NCBI GenBank assembly: GCA_018608435.1
Contig: JABAZV010000006.1
Location: 31,692 to 95,691, forward strand
Length of the DNA stretch: 64,000 nt
Direction of reading: 5' to 3'
Source of the DNA: Patescibacteria group bacterium
GTDB taxonomy: Bacteria > Patescibacteriota > Minisyncoccia > Phycocordibacterales > UBA918
In this document: positions 4,039-31,700 of the stretch, piece after piece
Layout: each line of letters begins with the position of its first letter
Position numbering within the stretch: the stretch's first letter is position 1
Translations under genes and position numbers: made by a program
Notes under the pieces: generated by a model
What the model saw: only the letters and a program-made list of their open reading frames with translations
Told to the model about the DNA's origin: nothing
Database searches by the model: none

Positions 4039-4063
4039 GCTGTGTGATTAAGTAAATTGTATT

Positions 4064-9400: not shown

Positions 9401-12400
9401 CACCAATTGATGCTGTGAGCATAACGCTTTTCCAATTGGTAAGTTCTGTTGGTACAGTGGCTGTTGACGATGTCTCAATAGTTGTAAGTGGCACCAGCGG
9501 GCCAAGCGAAGCTAATGCACCAGCTGTCAATATCACAACTCCAGCGGCTGGAACGACTATAAGTGGAACTGTAACGGTCGTTGCAAACGCAACTGACGAT
9601 ACGGCGATAGTAGGAGTTTACTTTGCTGCAAATGGTATTCCAATCGGAAGCGAAGACTTTGCTGCTCCATATAATTACGTTTGGGACACAACAGCTGTAC
9701 CAAATGGAGAGTATATCCTGAAAGCAACTGCTCATGATCCATACGGAAACAACAATAAAGACGAAATTACAATAACTGTTGATAATAGTGGTGTAACGCC
9801 TCCGCCTTCTGGTGGCAATCTTATTGCCAACGCAGATTTTGCAACGGTAGTAGCAGGTGAACCAGCAGGCTGGAATAAAGGAGGATGGGGAACAAACAGT
9901 CGTGTTTTGACCTTTGTAGACAATGGCGGAAACGACAAGTATATTCGAACTGCAATTTCTGATTACGTATCAGGTGACGCGAAATGGTACTTCAATGATG
10001 TGTCTGTAACAGCTAACGAAACTTACGGTTACACGAGTACTTATCGATCCGATGTGCCAAGCGCTCTGACAGCTCGCTACACCAAAGCAGACGGCAGTAT
10101 TCAGTACGAATACCTCGGAGGCGAGCCTGCTTCTGCAGCATGGAATGATACTCAGGCTTACGACATCACAACTCCAGCGGACACGGTTTCATTGACTGTT
10201 TTCCATTCAATCAGCACAGCCGGTACGCTCGATGTACAAAGTGCAATATTGACTGGTGTGGCTGGTGAGCAAACAATCGAAGATCTGCAGCAGATGGTCA
10301 GTGATCTATTCCTTCAGATAAATGGTTTGTTGGCAAATGCTGGTAAAGAAGTAGATTCTTGTGATCTGATGACACTTGATCTAGCTAAAAACGCAGAAGA
10401 ACTTGATGCCCAGATTAATGATTTACTTGCAGTGCTTTCTGTACTGCAGGGAGGTGGAGTACCAGTTATTGGAACTTGTACAGTAACTGACATTCCAGTC
10501 GGTGCTAACCTGATCGCAAACGGCGATCTAGAAGTTGGTTCAGCAAACAATCCAACAGCTTGGGCTCAAGGAGGCTGGGGTACTAATGCTCGCGCCTTCA
10601 CTTACCCAGTAGCAGGCGAGACTGGTGACGCTGCTCGAGTAGAAATCACAAGCTACACCTCAGGTGACGCAAAATGGTTCTTCAATGACGTAACAGTGGT
10701 GTCTGGAACTGATTACACTTTTAGCGAAACTTACAAAGCAAACGTAGCTTCTGGACTCACAGCTCGCTACACTACAGCTGACGGTACAGTTTCTTACGAG
10801 TATCTTGCAACATTGCCAATTGCGGCAACGTGGCAAACTCACGTTGAAACAATCTCAGTACCAGCAGGCGTTACTGCTCTCACTATCTTCCACACTATTA
10901 CATCTGTAGGTGTGCTAGATATCGACAACTTCTCACTAACCGGAGCAGATGGTGGTCCTGGAGGTGGCGGAGGAGGGGTTACTCCACCAACTATTAGTTA
11001 CACAGGAGTAAGTGATGGTGATACTGTAACGGGACGACTTGTTCTAAATGTATCATTAGTAGACGGTAGCGCAGCTCCTTACCAGTCAGTTCAGCTGGAA
11101 ACAAATGGCACACCTGTAGCCAGAGACACAACGGCACCATATGTGTTGGCTTGGGACACAACTCGTTTTGCAGATGGTGACTACGAACTTGTAGTTGTAG
11201 TAAACGACGAAGTCGAAGCAAAAACTCAATCTGCGGCAATCAACATCACAGTTGATAATGTTGCTGACCCAGTAGATCCACCTCCGGTAGATCCTCCAAC
11301 AGGGAGCGGAATAATCAACGGATCAATGGAAGCGGCTGACCCAACTGACGCAACGCGTCCAAACGGTTGGAGCAAAAGTGCTTTCGGAGAATACGATGTA
11401 ACATTCACTTATCCAATTGCTGGAATAAGTGGAAACGGAGCGCGAGTTGAGCTTGCTAACTACATATCAAGTGACGCAAAGTGGGTATTCGAACCAGTCT
11501 CCGTAACAGCTGGAGCACTATACACACTGACTCATAGCTATCGTTCTGATGTAGAGACTACTATTAGTTTGGTATATCAGCGAGCCGACGATTCTTTCTA
11601 CTACATTGGACGAGTAGACTTAGCACCTAGCGCAACTTGGAAAACAGTCAAAGATTCATTCGTTATTCCAGATGATGCTGTAGCAGTATCTGTATTTCAA
11701 AGCCTGACTGCAGACGGTTTCCTTGAAGTAGACGAATTCATGCTAGAGCTTGGAACACCAGATGCTTTCAGTCAAGGAATGATTTCTCTTAGCTTCGATG
11801 ACGGTTGGCTAACTCACTATACTGAAGCTTTGCCACTGCTTGAAAAACACGACACTGACGCAACTTTCTACATAGTTAGTGGCTACACAACAGAAGCAAA
11901 TGGATCAGAACTAGTCGCCAACAACCTTATTTCAACAAACAACGGCAACGGTACACCAACAGGATGGTTCCAAGGTGGTTGGGGAGATAGTACTCAAGCA
12001 CTGGACTATAATATTACTGGCGGCGTGAATGGTGATGGTTCAGTGCGTACTGAAATAACAAATTATGTTTCTGGCGACGCTAAATGGTACTTTGATGACG
12101 TGCCAGTGACAGCAGGAGAATCATATGCTTTAACGCAAACTTACCGTTCTACGACTGACACTCAAATCAACGTTCGTTACACAATGTCTGATGATTCGTT
12201 CGTATACGACTTCATTGCTGGCGCTCCAAATACTGGAAACAGTTGGGAAGTGAATTCAAGTATAGTTGTTGCTCCAGTTGATGTGGTATCAATGACAATC
12301 TTTCATGTAGTTACTAGCGACGGAGTGCTAGAAATCGACAATGCATCAATTGTGTTAGTCGAAGACTTCATCTCTACCGACGAGGTACAGCGTTTGGCTG

Positions 12401-12891
12401 CGGCTGGTCACGAGATTGGTTCACATACTATTACCCACAGTTACCTCACAACATTAAGTGAGGCAGGGCAGGTAGCAGAACTTGAAAATTCAAAATCTAC
12501 TCTTGAGAACACGATTGTTCCAGGTGTTGCTGTGACTAGCATCGCGTATCCTTACGGAGACTACGATGGCTCAGTATTAGACAAAACAGCTGCGGCTGGC
12601 TATGACGCGGCGCGCGGAGTAGACCGAGGCTATAACACCAAAGCGACCGAACGTTACGCGCTTAAAGTGCAGCAAGTCGATCGTACAACAACAATTGCTG
12701 ATATTAACGAATGGATGACACAGGCAGAAACCGACGGTACTTGGTTAATCCTTATGTTCCACCAAATCGACGACATCGCAGCCAACGATCTCGGTATCAC
12801 AGCAGAATTCCTAGATGAAATCCTGACGACAGTAAACAACAGCGGAATCGCAGTGACAACAATAGGTGACGCAATCGGACTTTTGAACTAA
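6409..12891 (+). CDS. Giant secreted multidomain protein (2160 aa): PQQ-type sugar dehydrogenase-like beta-propeller, PKD/Ig-like domains, six CBM_4_9-like modules, and a C-terminal CE4 (NodB) polysaccharide deacetylase with one CBM module inserted
   Basis: It has a signal peptide. The SGDH-like propeller shows AMAFTPDGRIFVTEKSGVVQVI...LLGIETDPNFASNGYVYLLYTY. The PKD domain shows LSYFWTFGDGATAATTSPVHTYTTNGLYTASLQVTDSNG. Six modules repeat about every 600 bp, each with GW..GGWGTN...SGDAKW(Y/F)F.D.. ...W...PA..T.FH...S.G.L.(I/V)D. The CE4 motifs are SFDDGW (motif 1), GHEIGSHTITH (motif 2), IAYPYG (motif 3) and LILMFH (motif 5). Confidence 0.9.
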   Translation: MKTPFNQTRSNVLVALVMLGAALTFFAPQSALAQIPDVVINESGFENEVIAGGLSLPTAMAFTPDGRIFVTEKSGVVQVIKNGVVLAAPLISLTDVNTFGDRGLLGIETDPNFASNGYVYLLYTYENSPGINISGAKTARIVRITVTGDTASESSKVVLVGAVGGNVTSPSCEDFAVTADCIASDSNSHSAGGLRFGPDGKLYATTGDGADFAAVDSRALRAQDIDSLAGKVLRINTDGTAPADNPFYDGDPDSNRSKVYAFGFRNQFRFNFNTETGKLYGGDVGWSSWEEINEVVAGANYGWPCREGDFAQAEYACDPSTVASDPVYAYAHDATGAGSITAGSFFENNVYPAEYSTSMFIGDYAQQWMKRLVLDTNGNVVEVVDFVPNMIWPVEITTGADGNVYYIDIARGSVNRITHTEGNRSPVVNITATPTSGLSPLQVEFSSAGTQDLDGDTLSYFWTFGDGATAATTSPVHTYTTNGLYTASLQVTDSNGATVSKSIDITVGNQSPAAEITSPVSGSFYEAGQTLSVYGLGTDPEDGAIPAENISWEVILHHNVHTHTLSTAAGVDTIEFQADGHDDPDVYIRVVMRVTDSNGLVGEDSINMYLDNGSGIAGNLISNPSLEEADPAFAIQPLDWIPGWYGNMNPVFEYPVNGLSGEKAARVTVTDYVSGAARWYFSPAFVQVGTDYRFSNVYIADTTTTFTAQYGRSDGTYFYEVLKVLPAVSDPTSAEVTFTVPEGVQTMTIFHDLFANGTLTVDEYSLVEVSGDTNPPTGFFTNIVPGDVVSGTVLLDVTAADAEGDVTMVHLYVDGAKVEGIEDTTAPFQLLWDTTAFADGGHTIQVHTHDEVDNAGLSDPIAITIDNSSTSTNPNLVFNGDFEIVGDDGLPAGWIQGGWGTNERVYTYPSNGRDGGRAAAVSINKYDLSDDGDAKWVFSDIPVIVGTEYTYRNYYYSDTISDIIGRYTYADGSISYFGLIKEIAPVADWTPLEATFTPPIDAVSITLFQLVSSVGTVAVDDVSIVVSGTSGPSEANAPAVNITTPAAGTTISGTVTVVANATDDTAIVGVYFAANGIPIGSEDFAAPYNYVWDTTAVPNGEYILKATAHDPYGNNNKDEITITVDNSGVTPPPSGGNLIANADFATVVAGEPAGWNKGGWGTNSRVLTFVDNGGNDKYIRTAISDYVSGDAKWYFNDVSVTANETYGYTSTYRSDVPSALTARYTKADGSIQYEYLGGEPASAAWNDTQAYDITTPADTVSLTVFHSISTAGTLDVQSAILTGVAGEQTIEDLQQMVSDLFLQINGLLANAGKEVDSCDLMTLDLAKNAEELDAQINDLLAVLSVLQGGGVPVIGTCTVTDIPVGANLIANGDLEVGSANNPTAWAQGGWGTNARAFTYPVAGETGDAARVEITSYTSGDAKWFFNDVTVVSGTDYTFSETYKANVASGLTARYTTADGTVSYEYLATLPIAATWQTHVETISVPAGVTALTIFHTITSVGVLDIDNFSLTGADGGPGGGGGGVTPPTISYTGVSDGDTVTGRLVLNVSLVDGSAAPYQSVQLETNGTPVARDTTAPYVLAWDTTRFADGDYELVVVVNDEVEAKTQSAAINITVDNVADPVDPPPVDPPTGSGIINGSMEAADPTDATRPNGWSKSAFGEYDVTFTYPIAGISGNGARVELANYISSDAKWVFEPVSVTAGALYTLTHSYRSDVETTISLVYQRADDSFYYIGRVDLAPSATWKTVKDSFVIPDDAVAVSVFQSLTADGFLEVDEFMLELGTPDAFSQGMISLSFDDGWLTHYTEALPLLEKHDTDATFYIVSGYTTEANGSELVANNLISTNNGNGTPTGWFQGGWGDSTQALDYNITGGVNGDGSVRTEITNYVSGDAKWYFDDVPVTAGESYALTQTYRSTTDTQINVRYTMSDDSFVYDFIAGAPNTGNSWEVNSSIVVAPVDVVSMTIFHVVTSDGVLEIDNASIVLVEDFISTDEVQRLAAAGHEIGSHTITHSYLTTLSEAGQVAELENSKSTLENTIVPGVAVTSIAYPYGDYDGSVLDKTAAAGYDAARGVDRGYNTKATERYALKVQQVDRTTTIADINEWMTQAETDGTWLILMFHQIDDIAANDLGITAEFLDEILTTVNNSGIAVTTIGDAIGLLN

Positions 12892-14540: not shown

Positions 14541-15821
14541 TTAATCTGTCTCTTCACCGATCGCGCGCAAGAACACTTCCCAAGCATCATCGTCAGACCA
14601 GAGCAGCCAGTTTCTTTCTTTGTTCTGGTTAAACCAAATCCAAGCTTCGATGTTTTTGTAGCGAGGAATGACATCAAAGAATCCTTCAGTCATCCACTTG
14701 GCCTTGTTTGGTCCTTCAGCTGACGCAAATGAGAAAATGAATATTGGCTTGTTGTATTGCGACAGAGTATCAAGCGGGCGAGTGAAAATCTCTTCAAAGG
14801 TGTACCACGGCGGCCCGTCATTAAACCCGTCTACACCGACAATATCGACGTAAGCATCGCCAGGGTAGTAGTTTTCAATCTTGTTTTCTGGAGTGTTTGG
14901 CACTGACGAAGCATTTACAGCCCAGCCAAATTTAACATTATTTAAGTGATTGAAGTAATCATGAATATACCGATAAGCTTGCACAGCCTTTTCTGGTGTA
15001 TTGCCGTTCTTGGTTCCACTCCATGGTGTCCAGTTGCCGTTTAGTTCAGAAAAAGGAATAAGAATAACCTCACCTCGGTAATTTTCTAGCTGGTCGGCAA
15101 AATCCTCGAAGTAATCGTCCCAGTTGCCATTTAAGATGTTCTGGTAAGAATAGGCAGGCTGATTTGTGCCTCCGATAGTGTAATCGCTGGCCTCCCAAAA
15201 GAGGACGAGTGTTCGGTCTTTGTCGCGTGCGTAGGTCTTGAGGAAGCTTGGTAAAGCACCATCACCGTTGCCCCAGTGAACAAAGAAGGCGAGATAATCA
15301 GGATTGGTTTCTACGCGTTGTTCAAAATCTTTGATGGCACCGGCATTTGAGCCAGTAAACACACCCCAATCTAATTGTTTGTATGGCGCCGGTGGAGTGT
15401 CGACAACTGTAGAGGGCTGGTTGGAGTAAAATGAAATATTGGTCGGTTTTGGAAGGATTGTGTTGTTTAGTGTGGTGGTTGATGTAGCTGCTGCAACTGG
15501 CATCTCTTCAATAACAGGCTTAATTGTTGTTTCTTGTTCAATCTCTACTGGCTTTACTGCTACTTCCTGTTCTTGCTGAACCTCTTTTGTTTCAGGTGTT
15601 TGTTGTAATTCTTCTGATTCTTGAACTATCACCGCTGTTTCTTCTGGCATTGTGTTTGTAGATAATTCTTCTGATTCGTGCAGAGCGTAAGCTGTTGGAG
15701 ATCTGGTTATAATTGACGGACTGTTAATTATCGTACTCGTTGTTTTTGGTGGAGTAGGGTTAATATTTTCAATTATTTCCTCCTGAACAGGTTGGTTGTG
15801 TGTACGCAAAATGTCTGCCAC
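14541..15821 (-). CDS. Glycoside hydrolase family 26-like (beta-mannanase family) with an N-terminal membrane anchor and a Pro/Glu/Thr-rich linker
   Basis: YYPGDAYVDIVGVDGFN matches the GH26 signature YYPGD.YVD.VG.D.Y(N/D). ILIPFSELNGNW matches the GH26 catalytic-acid region (HEMNG.W). Confidence 0.75.
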   Translation of the reverse strand: MADILRTHNQPVQEEIIENINPTPPKTTSTIINSPSIITRSPTAYALHESEELSTNTMPEETAVIVQESEELQQTPETKEVQQEQEVAVKPVEIEQETTIKPVIEEMPVAAATSTTTLNNTILPKPTNISFYSNQPSTVVDTPPAPYKQLDWGVFTGSNAGAIKDFEQRVETNPDYLAFFVHWGNGDGALPSFLKTYARDKDRTLVLFWEASDYTIGGTNQPAYSYQNILNGNWDDYFEDFADQLENYRGEVILIPFSELNGNWTPWSGTKNGNTPEKAVQAYRYIHDYFNHLNNVKFGWAVNASSVPNTPENKIENYYPGDAYVDIVGVDGFNDGPPWYTFEEIFTRPLDTLSQYNKPIFIFSFASAEGPNKAKWMTEGFFDVIPRYKNIEAWIWFNQNKERNWLLWSDDDAWEVFLRAIGEETD

Positions 15822-16044
15822 AAAGAATAGACATATAAAAAGGCAGAATCCACCACTGAGATAGAAAGCTTTCTTTTGTTTTCGATTTAACGGTGTCGAT
15901 TTCAGAGCTAGTATTATAACTCATTCTGAGTTTTGTTTGTGGTTTATGTATTTAAAATTGTGTCTTGTAGGTTGTCCTGTATGCCAATGTTAAATCTGCT
16001 CAGCAAATTCACTCAGAAACGGTGTTTGTGCCGCGTCTGCAGGT

Positions 16045-17529
16045 TTGACGATGCTATACTTTGTTATTATGAATAGTAATAATGACCATCATCTATCAAT
16101 TTCGCTGCAACCGTCTCGGCTGCAGCGGGTGGCAATGTCTTTGATGGCGGTCATGGTGCTGGTGACATTTGTTGCTACAAATTTGCAGGCTTTATTATGG
16201 CAATCTTCTTCTTGGCTGGTGGGAGCTGTTTTGCCGGCTGTGGTTGTTGATCTTACTAATGAAGAGCGTGGTGGGGTAGAAGCATCTTTGCTTGCGCGAA
16301 GCAGTCTGCTAGATGAGGCGGCACGCTTGAAGGCAGAACACATGGCTCAGAATGAGTATTTCTCGCACTATAGCCCTGAGGGAGTGACGCCGTGGGAATG
16401 GTTTGACGAGGTTAATTACGTTTACGCACATGCAGGAGAAAACCTAGCTATTCATTTTTCTGATTCATCTAAGTTGGTAGAAGCTTGGATGAATTCTCCT
16501 TCTCACCGTGAAAACATTGTGAATAGTGAATTCACAGAAATCGGCGTCGGTACAGCTAAGGGAAAGTTTGAAGGTTACGATACGGTTTACGTGGTGCAGC
16601 TGTTTGGCACTCCAGCAGTCATTGCTGAAGTAGAAGTCGTAACTGAGCTTGACGCAACAACATTTTCTTTGATTGAAGAAGTAGCTCCAGAAACAATTTC
16701 ATCAGATGTAGAACCAGCAATTGAAGAAACTGAAGAATTTACAGCAGTAGAATTAGCAGCAGTGACTGAGCCTGATATCGCTGCCGAGACTACTGCACTG
16801 GCTGAAGTTCTGGCAGTGCAGACTGAGGAAGTGATGGGAATAGTGGTAAAAGAAGATAGTTCTCATGCAGAAGAGGCTGCTAGCTATGAAGAAGCAACAA
16901 TAGAGATTAAGATTGAAGATCAATTAATTGAAACAGAATTAGAAACAGCCATAGATAATGAGGTTAAATTCACTGATTTGGCTGCTGTTTTAGATGTTGA
17001 ACCCGTTGAGTTAGAGGGTGTCGAAGATGAAATTTTACCATCTTCTACTTCAGAAACTGTTGTGGAAATCGAAGACCCTGCAAGTTCGACTCTGTTGTCT
17101 GGCAGCAGTGGACCAGCTGAATTAGTTAAAGCCGAGAACAGTCTGTCTGAGAGTGTTTCTGACTCTGAACAAGTGGCAGATGTTTCTGTTTATAAAGCAA
17201 GCCCTGCTGAAGTTATGCAAACTACGTTTCTATCAACATCATCTGGCTTAAAAGCGGTTGACTCTAAAAACACTTTTGTGACTGAGAAAACACTTTCTGC
17301 CACAGCAGGAACGACTGCCGCCGCGCTTGCTACCCAGCCACATGCGCTGTTGCGTGTCATATATATGTTGCTCACAACAACTATCCTTGGCTTGCTTGTG
17401 GCATCAATGGTGCTCGAGGCACGTCGTTTGCATGTGGTGCAAGTCGCTTATGGCTTTTTACTTATTTTAGGAATGGGAGGTTTGTGGTTCCTGCACGGTT
17501 GGTTTGTGGGTGGTGCGGTTGTGGTTTAG
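16045..17529 (+). CDS. CAP/SCP (YkwD-like) domain protein with an acidic low-complexity region and two C-terminal TM helices
   Basis: LTNEERGG...EYFSHYSPEGVTPWEWF...GENLA...EAWMNSPSHRENIVNSEFTEIGVG matches the CAP domain motifs. Confidence 0.8.
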   Translation: MTMLYFVIMNSNNDHHLSISLQPSRLQRVAMSLMAVMVLVTFVATNLQALLWQSSSWLVGAVLPAVVVDLTNEERGGVEASLLARSSLLDEAARLKAEHMAQNEYFSHYSPEGVTPWEWFDEVNYVYAHAGENLAIHFSDSSKLVEAWMNSPSHRENIVNSEFTEIGVGTAKGKFEGYDTVYVVQLFGTPAVIAEVEVVTELDATTFSLIEEVAPETISSDVEPAIEETEEFTAVELAAVTEPDIAAETTALAEVLAVQTEEVMGIVVKEDSSHAEEAASYEEATIEIKIEDQLIETELETAIDNEVKFTDLAAVLDVEPVELEGVEDEILPSSTSETVVEIEDPASSTLLSGSSGPAELVKAENSLSESVSDSEQVADVSVYKASPAEVMQTTFLSTSSGLKAVDSKNTFVTEKTLSATAGTTAAALATQPHALLRVIYMLLTTTILGLLVASMVLEARRLHVVQVAYGFLLILGMGGLWFLHGWFVGGAVVV

Positions 17530-17593
17530 TGTCGAATGATAATTCATTAGCACTGCCAGCAATGCTTTTCAATATCGAGTATACTAATGTGTA

Positions 17594-18055
17594 ATGAAGC
17601 AAAAAGCCTCCATAAGTGACAAAGCGAAACAGGTTGGTAACGCTATGATAAAAACTGATATTAAGTCAGAAAAGTTGCTTTTGTATGCCTCGCAACCAGC
17701 AGCTGGCTTTCCGGCACCAGGAGACGATCTGGTTGAAGCTCCACTTGATTTAAATGATTTACTTGTAGAAAACCCTACCAGTACGTTTTTTGTTCGCGTG
17801 TCTGGTGATTCTATGGAAGGCGCGCGTATTTTTGAAGGCGATATTTTGGTGGTAGATCGTTCAATTGAGCCTTCTCATGGCCGGATTGTGGTAGCTGCTG
17901 TGTATGGTGAATTGGTTATAAAGCGTTTACAAAAAACTCCCACAGGATTAGCTCTGGTGTCAGAGCAAAAAGGATATGAGCCAATTATTATCGATGATGT
18001 GGATGGTTGTTTTATTTGGGGAGTAGCAATTGGTTCGGCCAGGGTTTTGCTGTAA
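17594..18055 (+). CDS. umuD: UmuD-like S24 peptidase (translesion synthesis accessory protein)
   Basis: AGFPAPGDDLVEAPLDLNDLLVENPTSTFFVRVSGDSM aligns with E. coli UmuD [38 protein letters not shown]. This includes the Ala-Gly self-cleavage site, the Ser nucleophile and the Lys in VIKRL. There is no N-terminal HTH, so it is not LexA. Confidence 0.85.
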   Translation: MKQKASISDKAKQVGNAMIKTDIKSEKLLLYASQPAAGFPAPGDDLVEAPLDLNDLLVENPTSTFFVRVSGDSMEGARIFEGDILVVDRSIEPSHGRIVVAAVYGELVIKRLQKTPTGLALVSEQKGYEPIIIDDVDGCFIWGVAIGSARVLL

Positions 18056-18058
18056 GTA

Positions 18059-19288
18059 ATGTTTATAATCTACGTCTTTAGTACTATGAAAAATCAACTT
18101 GAAAAAACAACACATAATCAAATTTTATATATAGCCATGCTCTGGCTATTTCTAGCACTAGCTCCTGCTGTGGCGCACGGCGCTAGTAATCAGGTGGCTG
18201 TATGGATACCGTGGTGGGCGGAAGAAGCAGGAGCAGAAGATGCCGCTGCTCAAATACGCGATCTAGACGTCATCTATCCTTTTGTTTTTGAAGTAGAGGC
18301 TGACGGAAGTCTTAGAAACATGGTGGATTTCAAGGATGATCATTGGGAAGATTTGTTTGATAAGGCTGATGATCGGCGCGTGGATGTTGTTCCTACAGTC
18401 ATGTGGTTTGCTGGCTCAGAAATACATGAAGTTTTAAGTGATAGGCGCAAGCGAGAAAACCATGTTGAAGAGATTGTCGATATGGTGCGCAAAAATCGCT
18501 TCGATGGTGTAAATATTGATTATGAAAGTAAGTTAGCTGAAACTATCGATTACTTCTCTCTCTTTTTAAAAGAACTTGAAGACGAGCTCGGTCGCCGCGA
18601 TCTCACTTGTACCATAGAAGCACGCATGCCTCCCGAGTCTCGTTGGATTAATCCTCCTGCAGTTATTGAATATGCTAACGACTACAAAGAAATGAATCGT
18701 CATTGTGATTGGGTAGAAATCATGGCGTACGACCAACAGCGAGCTGATGTAAAGTTAAATAACGAACGTCGCGGAGTGCCGTATTCTCCAGTGGCAGACA
18801 TTGACTGGGTAGAAAAGGTGGTTGATCTCGCACTAGAAGATATCGATGAAGATAAAATAATGCTAGGGATCCCAACTTACGGTCGAGCTTGGGATGTGAC
18901 AGTGGCTTCAGAGTGGTATCGTGACTACAATCTAGTTACGTCCCTTAACCCAAAAAGAATAATTGAGCTTTCAAAGAAGTATGATTCGCTGATTGGAAGG
19001 ACTGCTGGTGGGGAAGCTGTTATTACGTACTTTCCTGAAGACTCACCGTGGCGATTGCTTAACCAATTACCAGCCCCTACAGGAACGCCTAAAGGTTACG
19101 AAGCAGCCGCCAAGGCTCTGCTCGTGGCAACGTACGCAGATATCGAAATTCCAGTTCGTTTTGTTTCTTGGAGTGATGCGCAAGCGATTGAAGATAAGTT
19201 GGACTTAGCTGACAAATATGATTTGCGAGGAGTGGCGATATTTAAAGTTGACGGCGAGGAAGACAAAAATATGTGGGATTTATTTTAA
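18059..19288 (+). CDS. Secreted glycoside hydrolase family 18-like protein, encoded between umuD and umuC
   Basis: It has a signal peptide. DGVNIDYE fits the GH18 catalytic motif D-G-x-(D/N)-x-D-x-E. The N-terminal VWIPWW is GH18-like. The gene starts 3 nt after the umuD stop. Confidence 0.75.
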   Translation: MFIIYVFSTMKNQLEKTTHNQILYIAMLWLFLALAPAVAHGASNQVAVWIPWWAEEAGAEDAAAQIRDLDVIYPFVFEVEADGSLRNMVDFKDDHWEDLFDKADDRRVDVVPTVMWFAGSEIHEVLSDRRKRENHVEEIVDMVRKNRFDGVNIDYESKLAETIDYFSLFLKELEDELGRRDLTCTIEARMPPESRWINPPAVIEYANDYKEMNRHCDWVEIMAYDQQRADVKLNNERRGVPYSPVADIDWVEKVVDLALEDIDEDKIMLGIPTYGRAWDVTVASEWYRDYNLVTSLNPKRIIELSKKYDSLIGRTAGGEAVITYFPEDSPWRLLNQLPAPTGTPKGYEAAAKALLVATYADIEIPVRFVSWSDAQAIEDKLDLADKYDLRGVAIFKVDGEEDKNMWDLF

Positions 19289-19400
19289 GACAGTACTTCT
19301 TATTCAGAAAGATAAAGTGCCGACTCTAATAGAGTGCGGCATTTTATTTTGCCAGTTTTAGAACATTGCCGAAGACACGGTCGATGGATATACTACTTGT

Positions 19401-20651
19401 ATGTCAAAACCACTTATCGGCTTGCTTGATTGTAATAATTTTTTTGTGTCATGTGAGCGTTTATTCCGACCTGATTTATTGGGTCGGCCAGTTATCGTCC
19501 TCTCAAGTAATGACGGTTGCGTAGTGGCCCGTTCGCAAGAAGTAAAGGACATCGGAGTAGAAATGGGTGTCCCTTACTTTAAAATAAAGGACACTGTAAA
19601 AGAGCACGGAATAGCAACGTTTTCTTCACATTTTGCTCTGTACAGAGATATTTCCAGAAGAGTGTTTGCTGTAATGAAAAGGGAATTAGAAGTAGTGGAG
19701 CAGTACTCAGTTGATGAAGCTTTTTTTATTATAAACAAGGATCATACTGAAACTGTAGTTAATTTAAAATCAACCATTGAGAAACTTGTCGGCATTCCTG
19801 TTTCTGTTGGAGTAGGGGCAAGTAAAACTCAAGCTAAATATGCTAGCGAACTTGCTAAGAAAGGTTCTGGCATAAAGGTCCTTACTCCAATCGAATGGAA
19901 TAGTTTGGCAGATAGTATCCCTCTTGGCCAATTGTGGGGAGTTGGTGGCAAATCATCAAAGCGGTATAAACAGCACAATTTGTTTACTGTCAGTGATATT
20001 TTAAATGCGGATTCAGGCAGAATAGCGCAATTGTTTGGGGTGAATGGTATTCGCTTGCAGCAGGAATTATTAGGTGATTTAACCCCTAAAATAGAACAAA
20101 AGCATGCTCCGCAACAAAGCATTACGAGCTCTCGTTCTTTTGCAAATTCGGTTACTGAACTGTCGATTTTGTACGATGCTGTTGCTTACCATGTGCGTCA
20201 CGCGGCAGCAGACTTGCGTGCACAAAAGCAGAATGCTGGCAAGATAATAGTCTCAATTAGACCTGGTCGATACGGTGATTTTGTCTTGCGTGGTGGCTCT
20301 AAAGAAGCTGTTTTCACCTCGCCTACAAACGACACTGTTGCTCTGATGACTTGTGCAGAAAAGCTTGTGTGTGATCTGTATGAAAAAGGTGTTCCGTACA
20401 AGAAAGTAGGAATAACTCTTTCTTTATTGCGCCCTGTAGGGGAAAGACAGACAGCCTTGTTTGCTGACCAAACACCAGAAGCAGGGTCGAAGCTACTGGC
20501 CGCAGTCGACATTTTAAACCAAAAGGTAGGGAAGGAGGTTGTGCTGTTTGGCAGTCGACTACAAACTAAAAAATGGCAATCTCGTTCAGCCTCTCAGTCC
20601 CCCTCGTATACAACTAACTGGAAAGACATTGCTACAGCACAGGCTTCATAG
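19401..20651 (+). CDS. umuC: Y-family DNA polymerase, UmuC-like (error-prone translesion polymerase V catalytic subunit)
   Basis: The N-terminus IGLLDCNNFFVSCERLFRPDLLGRPVIVLSSNDGCVVARSQEVKDIGVEMGVPYF aligns with E. coli UmuC FALCDVNAFYASCETVFRPDLWGKPVVVLSNNDGCVIARNAEAKALGVKMGDPWF. A umuD homologue lies upstream. Confidence 0.9.
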   Translation: MSKPLIGLLDCNNFFVSCERLFRPDLLGRPVIVLSSNDGCVVARSQEVKDIGVEMGVPYFKIKDTVKEHGIATFSSHFALYRDISRRVFAVMKRELEVVEQYSVDEAFFIINKDHTETVVNLKSTIEKLVGIPVSVGVGASKTQAKYASELAKKGSGIKVLTPIEWNSLADSIPLGQLWGVGGKSSKRYKQHNLFTVSDILNADSGRIAQLFGVNGIRLQQELLGDLTPKIEQKHAPQQSITSSRSFANSVTELSILYDAVAYHVRHAAADLRAQKQNAGKIIVSIRPGRYGDFVLRGGSKEAVFTSPTNDTVALMTCAEKLVCDLYEKGVPYKKVGITLSLLRPVGERQTALFADQTPEAGSKLLAAVDILNQKVGKEVVLFGSRLQTKKWQSRSASQSPSYTTNWKDIATAQAS

Positions 20652-21127
20652 GACAAGTGTCTGTTTGTGGGGTTTTTAGTATCCGACATTTGTACCAGAG
20701 CCCGTTTAGCGCTCATGTCCGTTTGTGTGATTATTAGCCATTAAAACTAGGTGTTTTCTAAAGGAACAAAGGTCAGCTCAAAAAGGTTATCAACAGTCAA
20801 TATCGGACAGTTGCATAAAGACTTAGTACAATACTTTTAGATCGGTAGTAGTTAAGTCGTTTAAACATTTTTCTTCAATGCGCACCGACACCCGTTTTAG
20901 CCAACGTAAGTGTCGATTGCAAAAAAGTATTTTATTAAAATGTTTGTTGCGGCTATACAGATAAAATTTCACTAAAGGCTGAGTTTTCTCACATATTGTG
21001 AATTACTTTATCTCTCCACAAACAACTACTATCGACCAGTACTTCAAGAGTTTCTCAATAAAAAACAAATTAAAATATTGAGTAAGTTCTCAGTACAAAG
21101 TTATTTAAAATAATTATAAATATAAAC

Positions 21128-22207
21128 ATGTTCGCAAAAGCAACTAAAGTTGGCTTTGCGCAGCAGGTGGTCGCGACACTTGTTGCAAGCGCAGTACTTA
21201 TGTGGTCATTTGGAATGTACCACACTGCGCAAGCAGCTAACCTCACTTTAATTAGTGACACCCTCGGCACTTCGGAGCCGGCGGTGACCTCAACACACTC
21301 AATTGCCTTCACTATCCCAACCGGCTCTGCGCTGGCGGATGGTGACACGGTAACTATTACATTCCCCGTAGGCTTTACAGGCGTTGCAGCAGTAGCCGAT
21401 GCTAATACCGACATTACTGTCGGAGGAACGCTAGATGTTGATGGTTCGGCAACCGTCGCAGGCGCTGGCCAAAGTATTACATTTAATACTGTGGCTGCAG
21501 CGGCGGGGCAAGAAATAATAGTCGCGATCGATGATTTGATTATTACAAATCCAGCAGTAGTTGGTTCGTATGAAATCTCACTTGATACTGGAACAGGTGG
21601 AGATAATGGTAACACTCGTGTTGCCATTATCGACACTGTACTAGTTACTGCAGCAGTTCTTACAACTTTTGATTTCACAATCATTGGAACTGCAACTTCT
21701 ACAGCAGTTAACGGAACATCAACTACTGGCTCAACTACTCCAACTGCCGTACCGTTTGGTACCGTGTCAGCTGGAGAAGTTAACACTCTCGCTCAACGTC
21801 TAACTGTATCTACAAACGCACGAAACGGTTTTGTGGTTACGGTACAAAGTGACGGTGAACTAGAGTCTTCAAACGGAGCGATCATTGACAGCTTCACCAA
21901 CGGTACTGACATTGCAGTTGCAGGTACCGCTTGGGCATCACCTACAAACCTCGTAGCAGATGAAGCGACTTGGGGTCACTGGGGAATCACTTATGATGAT
22001 GACGCAACAGTAGATCTTGCAGCCAATGAATTTATTGCTGCTTCTACTACACCGCGAGAAGTCTTCAGTCACACAGCTGCAGCTGATGGAGTAACACCAA
22101 ACATTGGTAGTACAACTATTGGCTACCAGCTAGAGATTACTCCACTACAGGAAGCGGCCGATGATTACAGCACTATTCTGACATTCATTGCAACACCTAC
22201 TTTCTAG
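21128..22207 (+). CDS. Secreted surface protein (signal peptide; N-terminal about 60-aa domain paralogous to that of ORF 24360..26258)
   Basis: Cleavage looks to follow AQA. The N-domain is SDTLGTSEP...THSIAFTI...GDTVTITFPVGF. The 24360 ORF has SDTISDSGP...HTLNFIL...GSTFEITPPSGF. The opposite-strand ORF 21070..21786 is a shadow. Confidence 0.7.
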   Translation: MFAKATKVGFAQQVVATLVASAVLMWSFGMYHTAQAANLTLISDTLGTSEPAVTSTHSIAFTIPTGSALADGDTVTITFPVGFTGVAAVADANTDITVGGTLDVDGSATVAGAGQSITFNTVAAAAGQEIIVAIDDLIITNPAVVGSYEISLDTGTGGDNGNTRVAIIDTVLVTAAVLTTFDFTIIGTATSTAVNGTSTTGSTTPTAVPFGTVSAGEVNTLAQRLTVSTNARNGFVVTVQSDGELESSNGAIIDSFTNGTDIAVAGTAWASPTNLVADEATWGHWGITYDDDATVDLAANEFIAASTTPREVFSHTAAADGVTPNIGSTTIGYQLEITPLQEAADDYSTILTFIATPTF

Positions 22208-24359: not shown

Positions 24360-26258
24360 ATGTTATCTCTAGCACTAAAGAAAGTGTGCCGATTATTACT
24401 ATTTGCACTGTTTGTATTTTCTGGTTGGCTAGTTGTGTCTACTGAAAGTGCGGAGGCAGCAAATATTATACAATACAGCGATACTATAAGTGATTCTGGT
24501 CCGAATCAATTAGCCAATCACACTTTAAATTTTATTCTCAACGCAGCAGCAGGAAGTGGTTCGACCTTTGAAATTACTCCTCCGTCTGGATTTACACTTA
24601 ATTCAACAACAACGTTTGGCGTTCGAAATGTTGAGCTTGTGGTAGATGGCGCCGTACGTTCTGCAGTTGATACTCCTACTGCTGGTGAAGATTCGGTTGA
24701 TATTACTGGTGGTTCTCCTGGTTTTATTAGCTACACTTTGGCTGACGATTACAGTATTCCGGCCGGTAGTGAGCTGACATTTAGAATCGGTAATCATACC
24801 TCCGGTGCCCTAGGAGCTGTCTCTTCTTTCAGTACTACTACTGGTACAACCACTACGCAAGCCGATGTGCCGCCAATACAGAACTCATCTGCTCTTGGGA
24901 GACATGATTTACTGCTTGAAGTATATGATGGTTCTTTGATCGCATCCACTGAGTTTGTTCTTTTTCTAAATAATAAGGTTAATCTACAAGGAATTGATAC
25001 GACAGAAGAAATTCCTCCTTTTCTTTTTAATGGTTCACCGACCAGTACTGTTGGCGGAACCACTTTGAGTGTAGAAATTTCTTTAGAGTCGGATGAGTTT
25101 GCTTTTTGTAGATATAGCACAACTTCGGGCACGGCTTTTACTTCTATGGATCCTGATTCATTCTCTAATACGGGTTTAATATTTCATTCGACAGTAGTTT
25201 CTATTGTTACTGGTCAACTCAACGTATTTTTTGTGCGCTGTATTGACGACGAAGGAAACTTTAATACAGAAGATTTTTTAATCTCTTTCGTCGTATCAGG
25301 TCAGCCAACCGGTACTGCTAACACCGAAGGTGAAACCAGTGGAGATGGAACTGGATCAGGAGATAGCGGTGGAGGAAGTGGTAGTGGATCAGGCGGAACC
25401 TCTGGTGATTCTGATGGTGAGCAACCAGAAGAAGGAAATTCTTCTGGAACTGGCGGTTCTGGTGGAGGTGGGGGTAGAACTTCTGGTGGCGGAGCTGGCG
25501 GTGGATTTGAAAATACAGATGCTTCGTATCGGAGTGGCGACGGACGCGTTGTAATTTCAGGTTACGCTTTTCCAGATAGTGACGTCACTATATTGATTGA
25601 CGGGCAGCTTCACGACACTGTAATAGCAGATGCTGACGGATCGTACTCCATTACTCTCGATGAAATAGCTCGTGGGGCTTATACTTTTGGAGTTTACGCG
25701 GTTGGTGACAATGATGTGAAGTCGTCAACATTCAGTACTTCCTTTACTGTAACTGGTGCTAGGACTTCTTCTTTGAGTAATATTAATGTTGTTCCGTCAG
25801 TACTGGTCGATCCTGACCCAGTTGATATTGGGCAAACTCTGACTATGTCTGGATATGCTTTGCCCAACGCGATTATTTCGATTGAAAACAGTCAACGTGA
25901 ATCAAGTATTGTAAAAGAAATTTCTGCTACTTCAAACAGTGATGGTTTTTGGTCGACTACAGTAGATACAGGTTCTTTCTCCCAAGATACATATCAAGTG
26001 CGGGTAAAGTCTGAGCAAGAGGATGGTGCTGAGACTGGATGGTCTAACTACACATATTATGGTGTTGGCGGAGAAGCTGAAGCTCCTCTTTTCCCCGATT
26101 TAAACCGAGACGGGTTTGTTAATCTTGTCGACTTCTCTATCTTACTTTTCTGGTGGGCAACAGACGGAGGTGACTCTGATCCACCGGCTGACATTAACCG
26201 CGACGGTAATGTGACTCTGACAGACTTCTCTATTCTGCTCTTTAATTGGACTGGATAA
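24360..26258 (+). CDS. Secreted protein with an N-terminal domain paralogous to ORF 21128, a Gly/Ser-rich linker, Ig-like domains and a C-terminal type-I dockerin
   Basis: It has a signal peptide. The C-terminus has DLNRDGFVNLVDFSILLFWW and DINRDGNVTLTDFSILLFNW. These are two canonical dockerin Ca-binding segments with D1-N3-D5-G6-V8-N/T9-D12 spacing. Confidence 0.85.
   Translation: MLSLALKKVCRLLLFALFVFSGWLVVSTESAEAANIIQYSDTISDSGPNQLANHTLNFILNAAAGSGSTFEITPPSGFTLNSTTTFGVRNVELVVDGAVRSAVDTPTAGEDSVDITGGSPGFISYTLADDYSIPAGSELTFRIGNHTSGALGAVSSFSTTTGTTTTQADVPPIQNSSALGRHDLLLEVYDGSLIASTEFVLFLNNKVNLQGIDTTEEIPPFLFNGSPTSTVGGTTLSVEISLESDEFAFCRYSTTSGTAFTSMDPDSFSNTGLIFHSTVVSIVTGQLNVFFVRCIDDEGNFNTEDFLISFVVSGQPTGTANTEGETSGDGTGSGDSGGGSGSGSGGTSGDSDGEQPEEGNSSGTGGSGGGGGRTSGGGAGGGFENTDASYRSGDGRVVISGYAFPDSDVTILIDGQLHDTVIADADGSYSITLDEIARGAYTFGVYAVGDNDVKSSTFSTSFTVTGARTSSLSNINVVPSVLVDPDPVDIGQTLTMSGYALPNAIISIENSQRESSIVKEISATSNSDGFWSTTVDTGSFSQDTYQVRVKSEQEDGAETGWSNYTYYGVGGEAEAPLFPDLNRDGFVNLVDFSILLFWWATDGGDSDPPADINRDGNVTLTDFSILLFNWTG
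26155..26255 (+). other. Dockerin type-I module (two 22-residue Ca-binding repeats) at the C-terminus of ORF 24360..26258
   Basis: The coordinates are approximate. The two segments are quoted in the entry for ORF 24360..26258. Confidence 0.8.
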
Positions 26259-26991: not shown

Positions 26992-28542
26992 ATGAAAACC
27001 ATCCGTATTGTAGATAAGATAATAACAGCAACACTTTTTTCTGTGGCTATGTTTGCCTTTTCAGCAGCTTCTGTTATGGCGGCGGACTTGGCTCTTTCTC
27101 CCAGCACAGGGTCTTACTCAGTTGGACAAACTTTTACAGTAGCTGTGCAAGCAGTGCCTGGTGGAGATAATGTTAACGCAGTTGAAACTACTCTGGAATT
27201 TGATCCTAGCGTTCTTTCTGTTGTCAGTATAAATAAAGATGGCTCCGCCTTTTCCTTGTGGACTACTGAGCCAGCCTTTTCAAACAGCGCCGGCACCATC
27301 ACTCTAGGTGGCGGAAGTCCGACGCCTTTTACCGCCACTTCCAAGATACTTAATGTTACGTTTAGAACAACAGGAGAAGGAGTTGGCTCGGTAACCTTTA
27401 GTGGTTCTTCAGTTTTGGCAGCTGATGGTAGAGGTACCGACGTTTATAAAAATTCTACCAATGGTACTTATACTATTGCTGTAGCCACAACTCCTACGCC
27501 AGAGCCTACTCCTACGCCTGTGTCTACACCTGAACCAGTGTCCCAAACACCGACTGAAGCAGCAGAGGAAGATGATGAAGAAGCTATTATTTTTGGCGAC
27601 CCGCCACGACCGCCTGAAGTTGGTTCTCAAACTTTTCTTGATCCAAATATTTGGTACGGTGACATAAACGGTCTTTTTACTTGGTCGCTTCCGTTTGATG
27701 TTAACGTCGTGGCTGTAGAAATTTCTGATGACCCAGAAAATAAACCTGAAGAAAACGAAGATGCAATCATTGATCCACCAGTTGAAGAGTTTATAATTAG
27801 CGAAGATAATGCCTCAGATGGAGTGCAATACGTTAGTGTAAACTTCAAAAACCAAGTTGGTTGGGGTGCGCCTACAAACAGGAAATTGCAGATCGACACT
27901 ACTTCGCCAGAGCCATTTGCAATTAATGTCCAAGCTGGAACTTCTCCAGATTCATTCCCTTTGCTTAAATTTGCTGCTGAAGATAAAACTTCTGGAATCG
28001 AATACTACGATATGACTGTGGCGGACAAAGAACCTGTCCGTATTACTCCTGACGAAGCAAAGCTTGGCTATTTACTTAAAGATCTTGAGGACGGTACGTA
28101 CACTGTAAAAGTGGTTGCTTCAGACATGGCCGGTAATACTCGTGAAAGTAGTGTTGCTGTATTGATCACTGCTGGTTGGGTGAAACCGGTTGAAGTCATT
28201 GATGAAACTTCTTTCTGGGACTACTTAACTTTCGTTAATCTTCTGATCTTCTTCTTAATCGTTACTATTATTCTACTAATGGTTTACGTCTGGTACTTGC
28301 TTAAGAGCACAAAAGAAAAAGATGAAAAATTGCGCCGAGAAACACGTGAAATTCAAGATCAAATGGAAAAGATTTTCTCTGCTCTCCGTGATGAAATTTA
28401 CGATCAAATCAACACCATAACAAAGCGAAAGCGGTTGTCAGCAAAAGAAAAAGAAACTGTAGCAGCTCTTACACAAGCACTAGAAGTATCCGAAACTCTG
28501 ATTGAAAAAGAGATCAATGATGTCAAAGCCATTCTGAAATAA
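26992..28542 (+). CDS. Membrane-anchored protein with an N-terminal cohesin-like domain, a Pro/Thr/Glu linker, a second beta domain, a single TM and a cytoplasmic coiled-coil tail
   Basis: It has a signal peptide. GQTFTVAVQAVPGGDNVNAVETTLEFDPSVLSVVSINKDG...GTITLGGG...ILNVTFRTTG...GSVTFSG follows the cohesin consensus (..fdl.YDp.vLe.vsv..). The TM is FVNLLIFFLIVTIILLMVYVWYLL. A C-terminal coiled coil follows. Confidence 0.75.
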   Translation: MKTIRIVDKIITATLFSVAMFAFSAASVMAADLALSPSTGSYSVGQTFTVAVQAVPGGDNVNAVETTLEFDPSVLSVVSINKDGSAFSLWTTEPAFSNSAGTITLGGGSPTPFTATSKILNVTFRTTGEGVGSVTFSGSSVLAADGRGTDVYKNSTNGTYTIAVATTPTPEPTPTPVSTPEPVSQTPTEAAEEDDEEAIIFGDPPRPPEVGSQTFLDPNIWYGDINGLFTWSLPFDVNVVAVEISDDPENKPEENEDAIIDPPVEEFIISEDNASDGVQYVSVNFKNQVGWGAPTNRKLQIDTTSPEPFAINVQAGTSPDSFPLLKFAAEDKTSGIEYYDMTVADKEPVRITPDEAKLGYLLKDLEDGTYTVKVVASDMAGNTRESSVAVLITAGWVKPVEVIDETSFWDYLTFVNLLIFFLIVTIILLMVYVWYLLKSTKEKDEKLRRETREIQDQMEKIFSALRDEIYDQINTITKRKRLSAKEKETVAALTQALEVSETLIEKEINDVKAILK

Positions 28543-28736: not shown

Positions 28737-31700
28737 GTGAAAAAAAATAAGCCTCACAACTCAAGCGAAAATAAAAATAAGAGCATTTTTAAAGCACCAT
28801 TCGGGATTTTGCAGCTTATTAATGGTTTTAAATTGTCATTAAAATTTACTCTAGCTGTCGCTGTTGTATTTAGTTTGCTTTTACTGCAACCGCCTGATGT
28901 TCAATCAAAACGTTCGACAAACATTAGCTTTGGTTCAGATCAGACCATCAATATTTTTCCGTCACAAGTTGAAACGACAGATTGGGCTGGACTTAACAAC
29001 GTTCTTATTCAGGATTTGCCGAACGATGCTCTGTACCAAAACTTTGGTGCTCAGTCATCAGCTTATGTTCCTTTGGCCGATTTGTTCGTTCCACAAAATG
29101 GCGAGCCTGAATTGATCAATAGTCAAGTACAGCCGCAAGCAGACAGTTCATCTTCAGACGGTAGTCAGCCTGCTTTGCCAAATGGAACTTCTGCTGCTGA
29201 CGCTGCCGGTTTTGTCGAGAATGATGCTATAAGTCTTTCTGGTGATCAGTCGACATCAACTCAGTCTGAAGAAGTGTCAAATGAAATTTCTGATAATCCT
29301 GTAACAGAAAGTGATTCGTCAAATGCTGATGAGACAGTTGTTGCTGAACCTTTGCTCGATGATGTTCCTGAAAAAGATGATGGTTTTTCTGTTCAGTCGG
29401 AACCAGAATCTGATGAAAGTACTGCTGCTGATGTTTCTGAAATAGAAGAGGAGATTGTTGTCGAAAGCGAAGTGGAAGTTGTTGCTGAACCTGTTGAAGA
29501 TTCGACGGCTGAAACTGAATCTTCAGAACCTGAACCTTCAGCTGAGCCAGAAGAAGCGATTTCACTGATTGATATTTTGCACCCAAAGTACGGAGTTTTT
29601 TCTGTAACTTCACAACTCTTTCCACTTATGCAGCTGTCGTTTGTTAGTACCACGGAACCGGTTTTAGAAGAATCTACTCCCCTTGAAACTGATTCAGGAA
29701 ATATTGTTGATGTAGAAGAAGATCAACCACTTCCTGAAGAAGCAGCTCCTGAAGAAACATTTTCATCATCAATTGCAAACGAAGGAGTTGTAGAAGAGAT
29801 TGATCCTCTGTCGCTTTCTGATGAAGTAGTAGAGATTGATACGACAACTTCTACATCTGAAATTTTGAATACTGAGTCATCTTTAAACACAAAAAGTATA
29901 GAGTCTCCAGTGGCCGACGATACTTCTTCAGCTTTGCAAGATTCTCCTGTGACATCTAATTCTTCATTTTTACATGAGATTACTTTGTCTAACTTCGATA
30001 CAGCCCCGCTCGATCCTGGGCAGTTTGTCCAAGGTATGCAGCTTAGACTTTCACTTGCAGCCCAGCTTAATGATCCTGTTGCTGACGGCGAACAAGCACC
30101 ATACATAGAAATATTATTTGGGCAAGGTGAATCGCTTGAAACTGTCGGTATTATTTTGCTTGAAGATGAAGTGTCAAATGCACTTAATGGTGGCTATTTC
30201 CTCTTCGCTTTACCTGAACTTTATGACATTGACAATCTCGCCAGCACCACGGTTTCTGTGCGTTACATGGGAGAGGCTGATTTGCTTGATGGAATGTTCC
30301 TTGATGCTGCTTGGCTCGAGCTTGATACGAAAATTATTACAAAAGAAGACCTTGAAGCTCGAGGTAATGCCGCAGCGATTAAGAAACTTGATTTGCCAAC
30401 AGCTAGTACGCTTATAAGCGATCAGGTTAATTTCCGTCGCGACGAAACCCCAGTCTTCAACTTGCGCTATAACTCAAAAAGAAACACTGTTCTGCGTGGT
30501 TTGCGTGACCTTTTCGGAAGAGATTTAGTGGAAGTTGAATCGGCTCTCGTTAAGCACCGTGGGACAGGTTTGTTAGGGATCACACCAGAGATTAATATTA
30601 CAAATGATGGTTTGCTTACCGTATCAATTAATGAAAAAGATAGGAAAAAACTTCGTCCCGGTCAGTATACGGTTGAGATAACATACAAAGAAGGAGGCGA
30701 GACTATCATTGATACTTTTGATTTCCAGTGGGGAATATTAACTACTAATCCCAATAAGTCAGAATATGAAGTAGGTGAGACAGCACAGATTTCCGTTGGT
30801 GTTTTGACTCCTACTGGACACACTGTTTGTGATGCAAATCTAGACCTGTACGTCACCGATCCTGAAGGATTTGTGTCTCGCTACCTAGTCGATCCGTCAG
30901 GTTTATGTGATGGAAATAATGTTATTGACGTGCCTGATTTCAGCACTTTTGTTCCAGTGACAACTGCAGGTGTGTATGAGCTGTATTTGGAGAGACTGGA
31001 CGATGATGGTTCTGTTCTTGGTTTTACTACAGACACTTTCAATGCTGTGCCTCTACAACAAACAATCAGTATTGAACGTACTGGGCCAACTCGTATTTAC
31101 CCACTTGCTCCTTACACAATGAGCTTGAAGGTTGATTCGGCTGGTGATTTTGATGGAACTTTGACCGAGTATGTTCCAGCTTCTTTTGTGGTTTTTGATA
31201 CTGACGCTAGTGTAGAGCGTGAAGGTGAGTGGCTTAAATTAGTTTGGGATTTATCTGTTTCGGCTAGTGGTACGGAAACCATTAGCTATCAGTTTGATGC
31301 TCCGGATATTTCTCCCTACCTCTTTACTTTAGGGCCAGCGCGGCTTGATTCTAACGACGCATCTACAGCTTCAAGCACCGAAAAAACGGCTAGAAATAAC
31401 GTTTTCATTGAACATCGCCGTTGGCAGATCGCGTCTGACGCGGTTGGGAAGATGTTGCTCTTCTGGGATGACGGTGCTGCTATTCCGGCAGGCTGGGTTT
31501 GTGTTTCTTGTGCACCGGCTGATCCTTTTTATCAAAGGTTTATTATGGGTAGCTCAACTTACAACTCTACTGGTGGTGCGGCTACTCATACTCATACTAC
31601 TAGCGGATCCGTTCTGGCGTCACTTTTATCTACGACAGAGAGTGGGTCAGGTACCATAGCGCCAGTGAGCCATACTCACACCTACACTCCGACTATCAGT

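Follow-up and report, generated by a model that had tools for sequence, protein, structure and literature searches.

In the textbook arrangement, umuD and umuC form a two-gene operon. The locus described here raises the question of whether the two genes, together with a third that lies between them, can still be regarded as one SOS mutagenesis operon. We analysed a 64,000-nucleotide stretch (the window) of contig JABAZV010000006.1 (assembly GCA_018608435.1, positions 31,692 to 95,691 of the forward strand) from a Patescibacteria group bacterium, in which a umuD-like gene (17594-18055), a gene for a GH18 hydrolase (most likely 18086-19288) and a umuC-like gene (19401-20651) follow one another on the plus strand. 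The initial annotation had described umuD and umuC as split by the GH18 gene, and we confirm this layout and its coordinates, with the three open reading frames (ORFs) on the same strand. It had also proposed that the three genes form one operon, with the hydrolase co-regulated with translesion synthesis. Our analysis points elsewhere: this is probably a lineage-fixed layout of the polymerase V genes (umuDC) in which GH18 splits the pair and each of the three genes forms a transcription unit of its own, not an SOS operon.

The two outer genes were identified from their domains and from family models. The umuD-like gene encodes a 153-residue S24 self-cleaving peptidase without a DNA-binding domain, with a Peptidase_S24 match (PF00717, 90.9 bits) over residues 31-146. 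With 133.4 bits it clears the cut-off (110) of NCBIfam's UmuD model NF007621, and with 62.7 bits it falls short of that of the LexA model (110.95); it is also the sole S24 match in the window, where no lexA or recA was found. Alignment to E. coli UmuD/UmuD' places A37-G38 on the C24-G25 cleavage site, S73 (in a GDSM motif) on S60 and K110 on K97, bearing out the Ala-Gly site and Ser/Lys dyad assigned to the protein from the sequence. Among 64 relatives, the Ala-Gly site is present in 62, GDSM in 61 and the lysine motif in 59. The umuC-like gene starts 1345 nucleotides beyond umuD and encodes a 416-residue Y-family DNA polymerase, as had been claimed, with IMS (PF00817, 106.2 bits), IMS_C (PF11799, 60.3 bits) and DUF4113 (PF13438, 48.1 bits) domains and the motif SSNDGCVVARS, which is typical of UmuC. 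Its best NCBIfam match is the UmuC model NF002955, over the full length.

That match, at 267.8 bits, lies below the curated cut-off of 431, and the two genes are not adjacent; both points would suit a reading in which an S24 protein and a Y-family polymerase that are unrelated, such as a fragment resembling LexA and a polymerase of the DinB type, happen to flank GH18. We regard this as highly improbable. The UmuD-like protein scores above the curated threshold for UmuD and can be aligned with its E. coli counterpart across cleavage site and dyad. The polymerase carries DUF4113 and scores far lower against Pol IV models (163 bits at most). Both genes are present in 46 of 47 loci, and their nearest homologues in the outgroup stand next to each other as umuDC pairs.

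To place this arrangement among relatives, we scanned metagenomes with an alignment of the GH18 protein, which returned 80 more loci and, with the window, a set of 78 non-redundant loci. Many of the contigs derive from marine and lake samples, and in CP060228, a complete genome of the clade (951 kb), the corresponding region is at 754-766 kb. The window proteins were mapped onto these loci, and only those with enough flanking DNA were counted. By this measure umuD lies upstream of GH18 in 66 of 71 assessable loci, umuC lies downstream in all 51, and the complete umuD-GH18-umuC order is kept in 46 of 47 loci that could be fully assessed, which speaks against a recent insertion or annotation noise. 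The database homologues of the GH18 protein are abundant, share 64-78% identity with it and, where named, come from Candidatus Nomurabacteria or Kaiserbacteria, the labels used by NCBI for the clade, or from 'Patescibacteria group'. The neighbourhoods of four such homologues read CAP-S24-GH18-IMS, with one variant that lacks the S24 gene and has an opposite-strand NUDIX gene before the polymerase. Within the clade, identity to the window proteins ranges over 53-78% for GH18, 41-60% for UmuC and 52-82% for UmuD. Judged by this spread, the order is old within the Patescibacteria clade and ancestral to it, and it is specific to that clade.

Outside the clade the picture is different. Distant UmuC loci, collected in a scan with a single UmuC protein that returned L008 as its sole clade member, include more than 20 that hold both genes (in Legionella, Caedibacter, Bacteroidota, Enterobacterales and others), and in these no more than a few tens of bases part the end of umuD from the beginning of umuC. 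Window UmuC shares 30-38% identity with the UmuC proteins of Legionella, Bacteroidota and Enterobacterales. Like E. coli-type umuDC, the window pair combines an S24 peptidase bearing an Ala-Gly site and a Ser/Lys dyad with a Y-family polymerase, on the same strand and with umuD first; unlike it, the pair is parted by an unrelated gene of 1.2 kb, with a predicted terminator, a separate umuC promoter and no LexA box.

The conserved order extends beyond the three genes. Immediately upstream of umuD, and its constant neighbour, is a plus-strand gene (16045-17529) for a secreted or membrane protein with a CAP domain, which belongs to the same syntenic block. The whole block, CAP-umuD-GH18-umuC-p359-p364-p166, is conserved as strongly as the umuD-GH18-umuC trio, and adjacency by itself therefore says nothing about shared function and reflects general synteny. 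In rare loci (L114:178-2958, L093, L094, L095 and L112) no umuD lies upstream of GH18, which retains its promoter motif, described below. In L114, a gap of 1.5 kb after GH18 is followed by a p359 homologue, and umuC was not detected.

The middle gene encodes a protein with a clear GH18 domain (PF00704, 95.1 bits, cut-off 29.6), the motif FDGVNIDYE and an N-terminal hydrophobic segment that could be a signal or an anchor. The GH18 signature DxxDxDxE reads D-G-V-N-I-D-Y-E, with the middle aspartate replaced by asparagine in nearly all members. An alignment of 35 homologues shows no variation at the catalytic Asp and Glu, D145 and E147 (numbering of the 400-residue protein), or in M-x-Y-D, and the surrounding EIMAYDQ is invariant or conservatively substituted. 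An AlphaFold model has a mean predicted local distance difference test score (pLDDT) of 71; the core of the barrel scores above 85, and an insertion spanning roughly residues 267-340 is of low confidence. The top Foldseek matches of the model are all GH18 proteins, with E values down to 7e-17. By both sequence and fold, the best PDB matches are 4Q6T, 4WIW, 5JH8, SleL (4S3J, 4S3K) and YdhD (3CZ8). With SleL (YaaH)/YdhD-type and 'class V chitinase' structures the window protein shares the (beta/alpha)8 barrel, the D-x-E pair and M-x-Y-D, and in these relatives the middle aspartate of DxxDxDxE is also replaced, by N in 4Q6T and by T in YdhD. It differs from them in its low identity (17-20%), its lack of LysM, its N-terminal signal or anchor and the insertion at about 267-340. 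SleL and YdhD are spore-cortex peptidoglycan N-acetylglucosaminidases of Bacillus, whereas the window organism is non-spore-forming. The protein is most likely a secreted or anchored hydrolase of N-acetylglucosamine polymers, acting on peptidoglycan or chitin oligomers.

The initial annotation had the GH18 ORF starting 3 nucleotides after the umuD stop. Such an ORF exists (18059-19288, 409 residues), but the ATG at 18059 is probably unused and translation probably starts at 18086, 30 nucleotides past the umuD stop, giving a protein of 400 residues. An exact look-up of either form, 409 or 400 residues, matched no recorded contig. The choice of 18086 rests on a 100%-identical database protein that begins at M10 of the ORF, that is, at position 18086, and on a conserved motif held 9 nucleotides from that ATG. 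The motif (18052-18076, plus strand) is bipartite and promoter-like, with a -35-like GTAAGT at 18052-18057, a spacer of 15 nucleotides and a -10-like CGTC at 18073-18076, followed by 9 nucleotides and the ATG. The umuD stop codon TAA (18053-18055) sits inside the GTAAGT hexamer, an overlap seen in 15 of 65 loci.

Across the non-redundant set, the pattern G[T/A]AAG[A/T/G]-N15-CGTC precedes GH18 in 75 of 78 loci; of the other three, two are contigs truncated where the gene begins and one is a variant. The ATG lies exactly 9 nucleotides past CGTC in 52 of the 75 motif-bearing loci. The window holds one copy. The strict form of the motif was found 71 times before GH18 and had no further match on either strand of 493 kb of related loci, where shuffled sequences lead one to expect 1.85 occurrences. 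It is also retained at GH18 genes that have no umuD before them (L003, L093-L095, L112). We predict from this pattern that the motif is a dedicated GH18 promoter, of a type unlike those of umuD and umuC, and with two rigidly spaced halves at a set distance from the ATG it looks like the promoter of a leaderless mRNA.

The form of the motif suggests a class of sigma factor. Promoters of the Bacillus extracytoplasmic function (ECF) sigma factors W, X and M follow TGAAAC/TGTAAC-N16-17-CGTx in the descriptions of Helmann and Staron. The motif of the window clade, written as tG[T/A]AAG-N16-CGTC, resembles ECF (group 4) promoters in being bipartite and rigidly spaced, in its CGT-type -10 element and in preceding the gene of an envelope-acting enzyme, and on these grounds we infer an ECF-like sigma class. 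In two relatives (L046:205-825 and 835-1752; L051:6-431), the DNA some 2 kb before the CAP gene carries an ECF-type sigma gene, followed by a gene for a multi-pass membrane protein that may be an anti-sigma factor. This sigma gene was considered as the source of the cognate factor and set aside as not clearly fitting, as it was found in two loci only and has no GH18 motif upstream of itself.

Downstream of GH18, the sequence offers both a stop and a restart. An element resembling an intrinsic terminator (19308-19350, plus strand) consists of an A-tract, an interrupted hairpin of 19 bp and then TTTTATTTT. The hairpin has a folding free energy (dG) of -22.3 kcal/mol and a z-score of -7.08, and none of 200 shuffled sequences folds as well; the umuD-GH18 junction, by comparison, is unstructured (z = +1.2). 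When we searched for a hairpin with a T-run (dG <= -8) within 110 nucleotides of the stop codon, 54 of 74 loci had one after GH18, with sequences unrelated between loci. The same scan was positive for 9 of 53 regions that follow umuD (17%) and, in two sets of random coding windows, for 14 of 156 (9%) and 14 of 90 (16%). Past this element lies a predicted sigma-70-type umuC promoter (19366-19394, plus strand), formed by TTGCCG, 17 nucleotides and TATACT (19389-19394), with the -10 box ending 6 nucleotides before the ATG at 19401. Of 51 loci, 40 have a -10-like hexamer, often TGGTATACT, placed 5-8 nucleotides ahead of the umuC start codon, compared with 22 of 2640 internal ATGs (0.8%) in a control scan. 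This placement suggests that the umuC transcript is leaderless and arises from its own extended -10 box.

The interval between GH18 and umuC ranges from 30 to 2062 nucleotides and is longer than 140 in 28 of the 51 loci. About 20 of these have, within the interval, an opposite-strand NUDIX gene, divergent from umuC, whose product has a PF00293 domain with an RppH-like WQFxQGG and a Nudix box. Obligate co-transcription of GH18 and umuC is therefore incompatible with the gene order at these loci. Overall, 28 related loci have a NUDIX gene within the umuD-GH18-umuC cluster (for example L003:6429-6887 on the minus strand, L066, L008, L040, L042 and L045), mostly on the opposite strand and with its start 20-40 nucleotides from the umuC ATG. 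It falls between umuD and GH18 in L057, L059, L069 and L101, and is on the plus strand in a few loci; no NUDIX homologue was found in the window. A TAGCATA sequence conserved near umuC in some loci was considered as an operator and rejected, since it is best explained as the -10 box from which the divergent NUDIX gene would be transcribed.

At the upstream end, a predicted -10 box, TATACT preceded by G, is found at 17580-17585 (plus strand), 8 nucleotides before the umuD ATG, and the umuD transcript is accordingly predicted to be leaderless or nearly so. Boxes resembling GTATACT or GTACACT lie 5-10 nucleotides before an in-frame umuD ATG in 27 of 63 relatives. Several of these lie past a terminator that ends the CAP gene, and elsewhere umuD abuts CAP. 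The umuD start coincides with the CAP stop codon, or lies within a few bases of it, in roughly half of the relatives, with no recognisable -10 box, and co-transcription of CAP and umuD is possible in such loci. Leaderless starts would not be peculiar to this locus. Shine-Dalgarno motifs precede 1 of 31 window genes, and G-TATAAT or TATACT ends 6-8 nucleotides before the ATG of several of them (for example at 13026, 24360, 26488 and 50763), which together suggest that leaderless mRNAs are the norm in this genome. A search of 15700-21300 with Rfam returned no RNA family.

If the genes belonged to an SOS operon, a LexA operator might be sought upstream of umuD or umuC. We searched the three intergenic regions, allowing up to two mismatches, with six phylum-type LexA boxes, among which the published Patescibacteria motif was not included, and obtained one match only, GAAT-N4-ATTC. 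This perfect palindrome lies upstream of umuD (17534-17545), two symmetric mismatches from the Gram-positive LexA box; as it is not conserved in relatives, we rejected it as a degenerate form of that box. The initial annotation had found neither CTGT-N8-ACAG nor GAAC-N4-GTTC upstream of umuD, and this absence stands at the same tolerance of up to two mismatches. A palindrome screen of 51 umuC and 62 umuD upstream regions, with exact half-sites of 4-6 nucleotides and spacers of 0-10, found none common to more than six sequences and returned only terminator stems and lineage-specific repeats. Sanchez-Osuna, Barbe and Erill reportedly described an SOS network in Patescibacteria in 2017, with a defined LexA motif for the group.

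Taken together, these signals suggest the following course of expression. The umuD gene would be read from a housekeeping-type -10 box next to its ATG. GH18 would be read from its own ECF-sigma-like promoter, tG[T/A]AAGA-N15-CGTC-N9-ATG, the -35 element of which overlaps or closely follows the umuD stop, and its transcription would stop at the intrinsic terminator. Transcription of umuC would then restart from an extended -10 box 6 nucleotides before the ATG. Control of polymerase V by DNA damage would be post-translational, through RecA-stimulated self-cleavage of UmuD and not through a LexA operator, a view we take because the cleavage site and Ser/Lys dyad are conserved.

A single damage-inducible umuD-GH18-umuC operon, in which the hairpin serves as an attenuator or stabiliser and the hydrolase is co-induced with translesion synthesis, would fit the shared strand and conserved order of the three genes, the short umuD-GH18 gap without a terminator, and the few relatives in which GH18 and umuC are 30-39 nucleotides apart, again without a terminator. 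But GH18 has a conserved promoter motif of another type, a terminator follows it in 73% of loci, a separate -10 box precedes umuC in 78%, an opposite-strand NUDIX gene intervenes in about 20 loci, and no conserved operator was found. The internal promoter and terminator that the initial annotation named as evidence against its own proposal are thus present as conserved sequence signals, and we consider a single operon very unlikely; the co-regulation of GH18 with translesion synthesis is not supported.

Several observations nevertheless weigh against the division into three units that we favour. The promoters, terminators and leaderless starts on which it is built are predictions from sequence. 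The -35 half of the GH18 motif ends in AAG, against the usual AAC of ECF promoters, and we identified no cognate sigma factor for the motif. No terminator could be detected after GH18 in 20 of 74 loci, intrinsic terminators are seldom fully efficient, and the gap from GH18 to umuC is only 30-39 nucleotides in L005, L043 and L044, where GH18 and umuC may be co-transcribed. Between umuD and GH18, terminators do not rise above background (9 of 53 loci) and the median gap is 36 nucleotides; as Shine-Dalgarno sites also appear not to be needed, read-through from umuD could possibly yield GH18 protein. Finally, the palindrome screen demanded exact half-sites, so a degenerate operator could escape it.

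The umuD-GH18 junction is where a partial coupling would have to act. In such a scheme, umuD and GH18 would be paired by read-through in addition to the GH18 promoter, and the hydrolase would work on the wall during DNA-damage stress, by analogy with ChiZ and YneA. No terminator follows umuD, the GH18 -35 element overlaps the umuD stop or lies close behind it, and GH18 always stays between umuD and umuC while other genes come and go. Envelope-acting division inhibitors induced by the SOS response are documented, namely ChiZ/Rv2719c (a cell-wall hydrolase), YneA, DivS and SidA (PMC4211646). The window protein resembles these in being extracytoplasmic or wall-acting and in having a gene linked to DNA-damage genes, a likeness that is positional only. 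It differs in that they are LexA-regulated and mostly small membrane proteins, whereas the window has a GH18 protein of 400 residues, an alternative-type promoter and no LexA box. Against partial coupling, moreover, the GH18 promoter and sequence are conserved in the loci that lack umuD, other genes or long gaps part umuD from GH18 in 13 loci, there is no sign that umuD is damage-inducible, with neither a LexA box nor a conserved palindrome upstream, and linkage within a syntenic block of seven genes needs no functional cause. We therefore hold this coupling to be unlikely.

A related reading is that selection, not inertia, keeps GH18 in its position. The enzyme, partly expressed by read-through from umuD, would be a damage-linked wall-remodelling or division-delay enzyme, the counterpart of ChiZ and YneA in the candidate phyla radiation (CPR), and its ECF-like promoter would add an envelope-stress input. 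Were this true, the selected position of GH18 would link translesion synthesis to wall metabolism in Patescibacteria that are free of LexA boxes; we find it unlikely.

The rest of the window encodes mainly cell-surface proteins, with sortase, cohesin, dockerin and FN3 domains and two giant ORFs. The giant ORFs (6409-12891, 2160 residues, and 28737-45536, 5599 residues) are typical of CPR surface proteins. A dockerin protein gene (24360-26258) and a cohesin protein gene (26992-28542) stand two genes apart, and their products may form a small cohesin-dockerin surface assembly; in relatives, the dockerin protein belongs to the conserved block that follows umuC. At 2050-4666, a sortase gene comes after one that encodes a Lamin-tail-domain protein, a pair that suggests sortase-anchored surface proteins. 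Divergent from the CAP gene is a minus-strand gene for a GH26-like secreted protein (14541-15821), with a homologue similarly placed in L077.

The split umuDC layout is thus a conserved variant of which we found no description in the searchable literature. For the annotation of the locus, our results would move the start of GH18 to 18086 and replace one transcription unit with three, and they offer no evidence for a wall hydrolase in the DNA-damage response. The clade-wide motif specific to GH18 may be bound by an alternative sigma factor; the transcription signals of these organisms have hardly been studied. For polymerase V itself, a umuDC pair permanently split throughout a clade shows that its subunits need not be co-transcribed, and with each gene apparently under its own promoter and no LexA box in view, its control may rest on the self-cleavage of UmuD alone.

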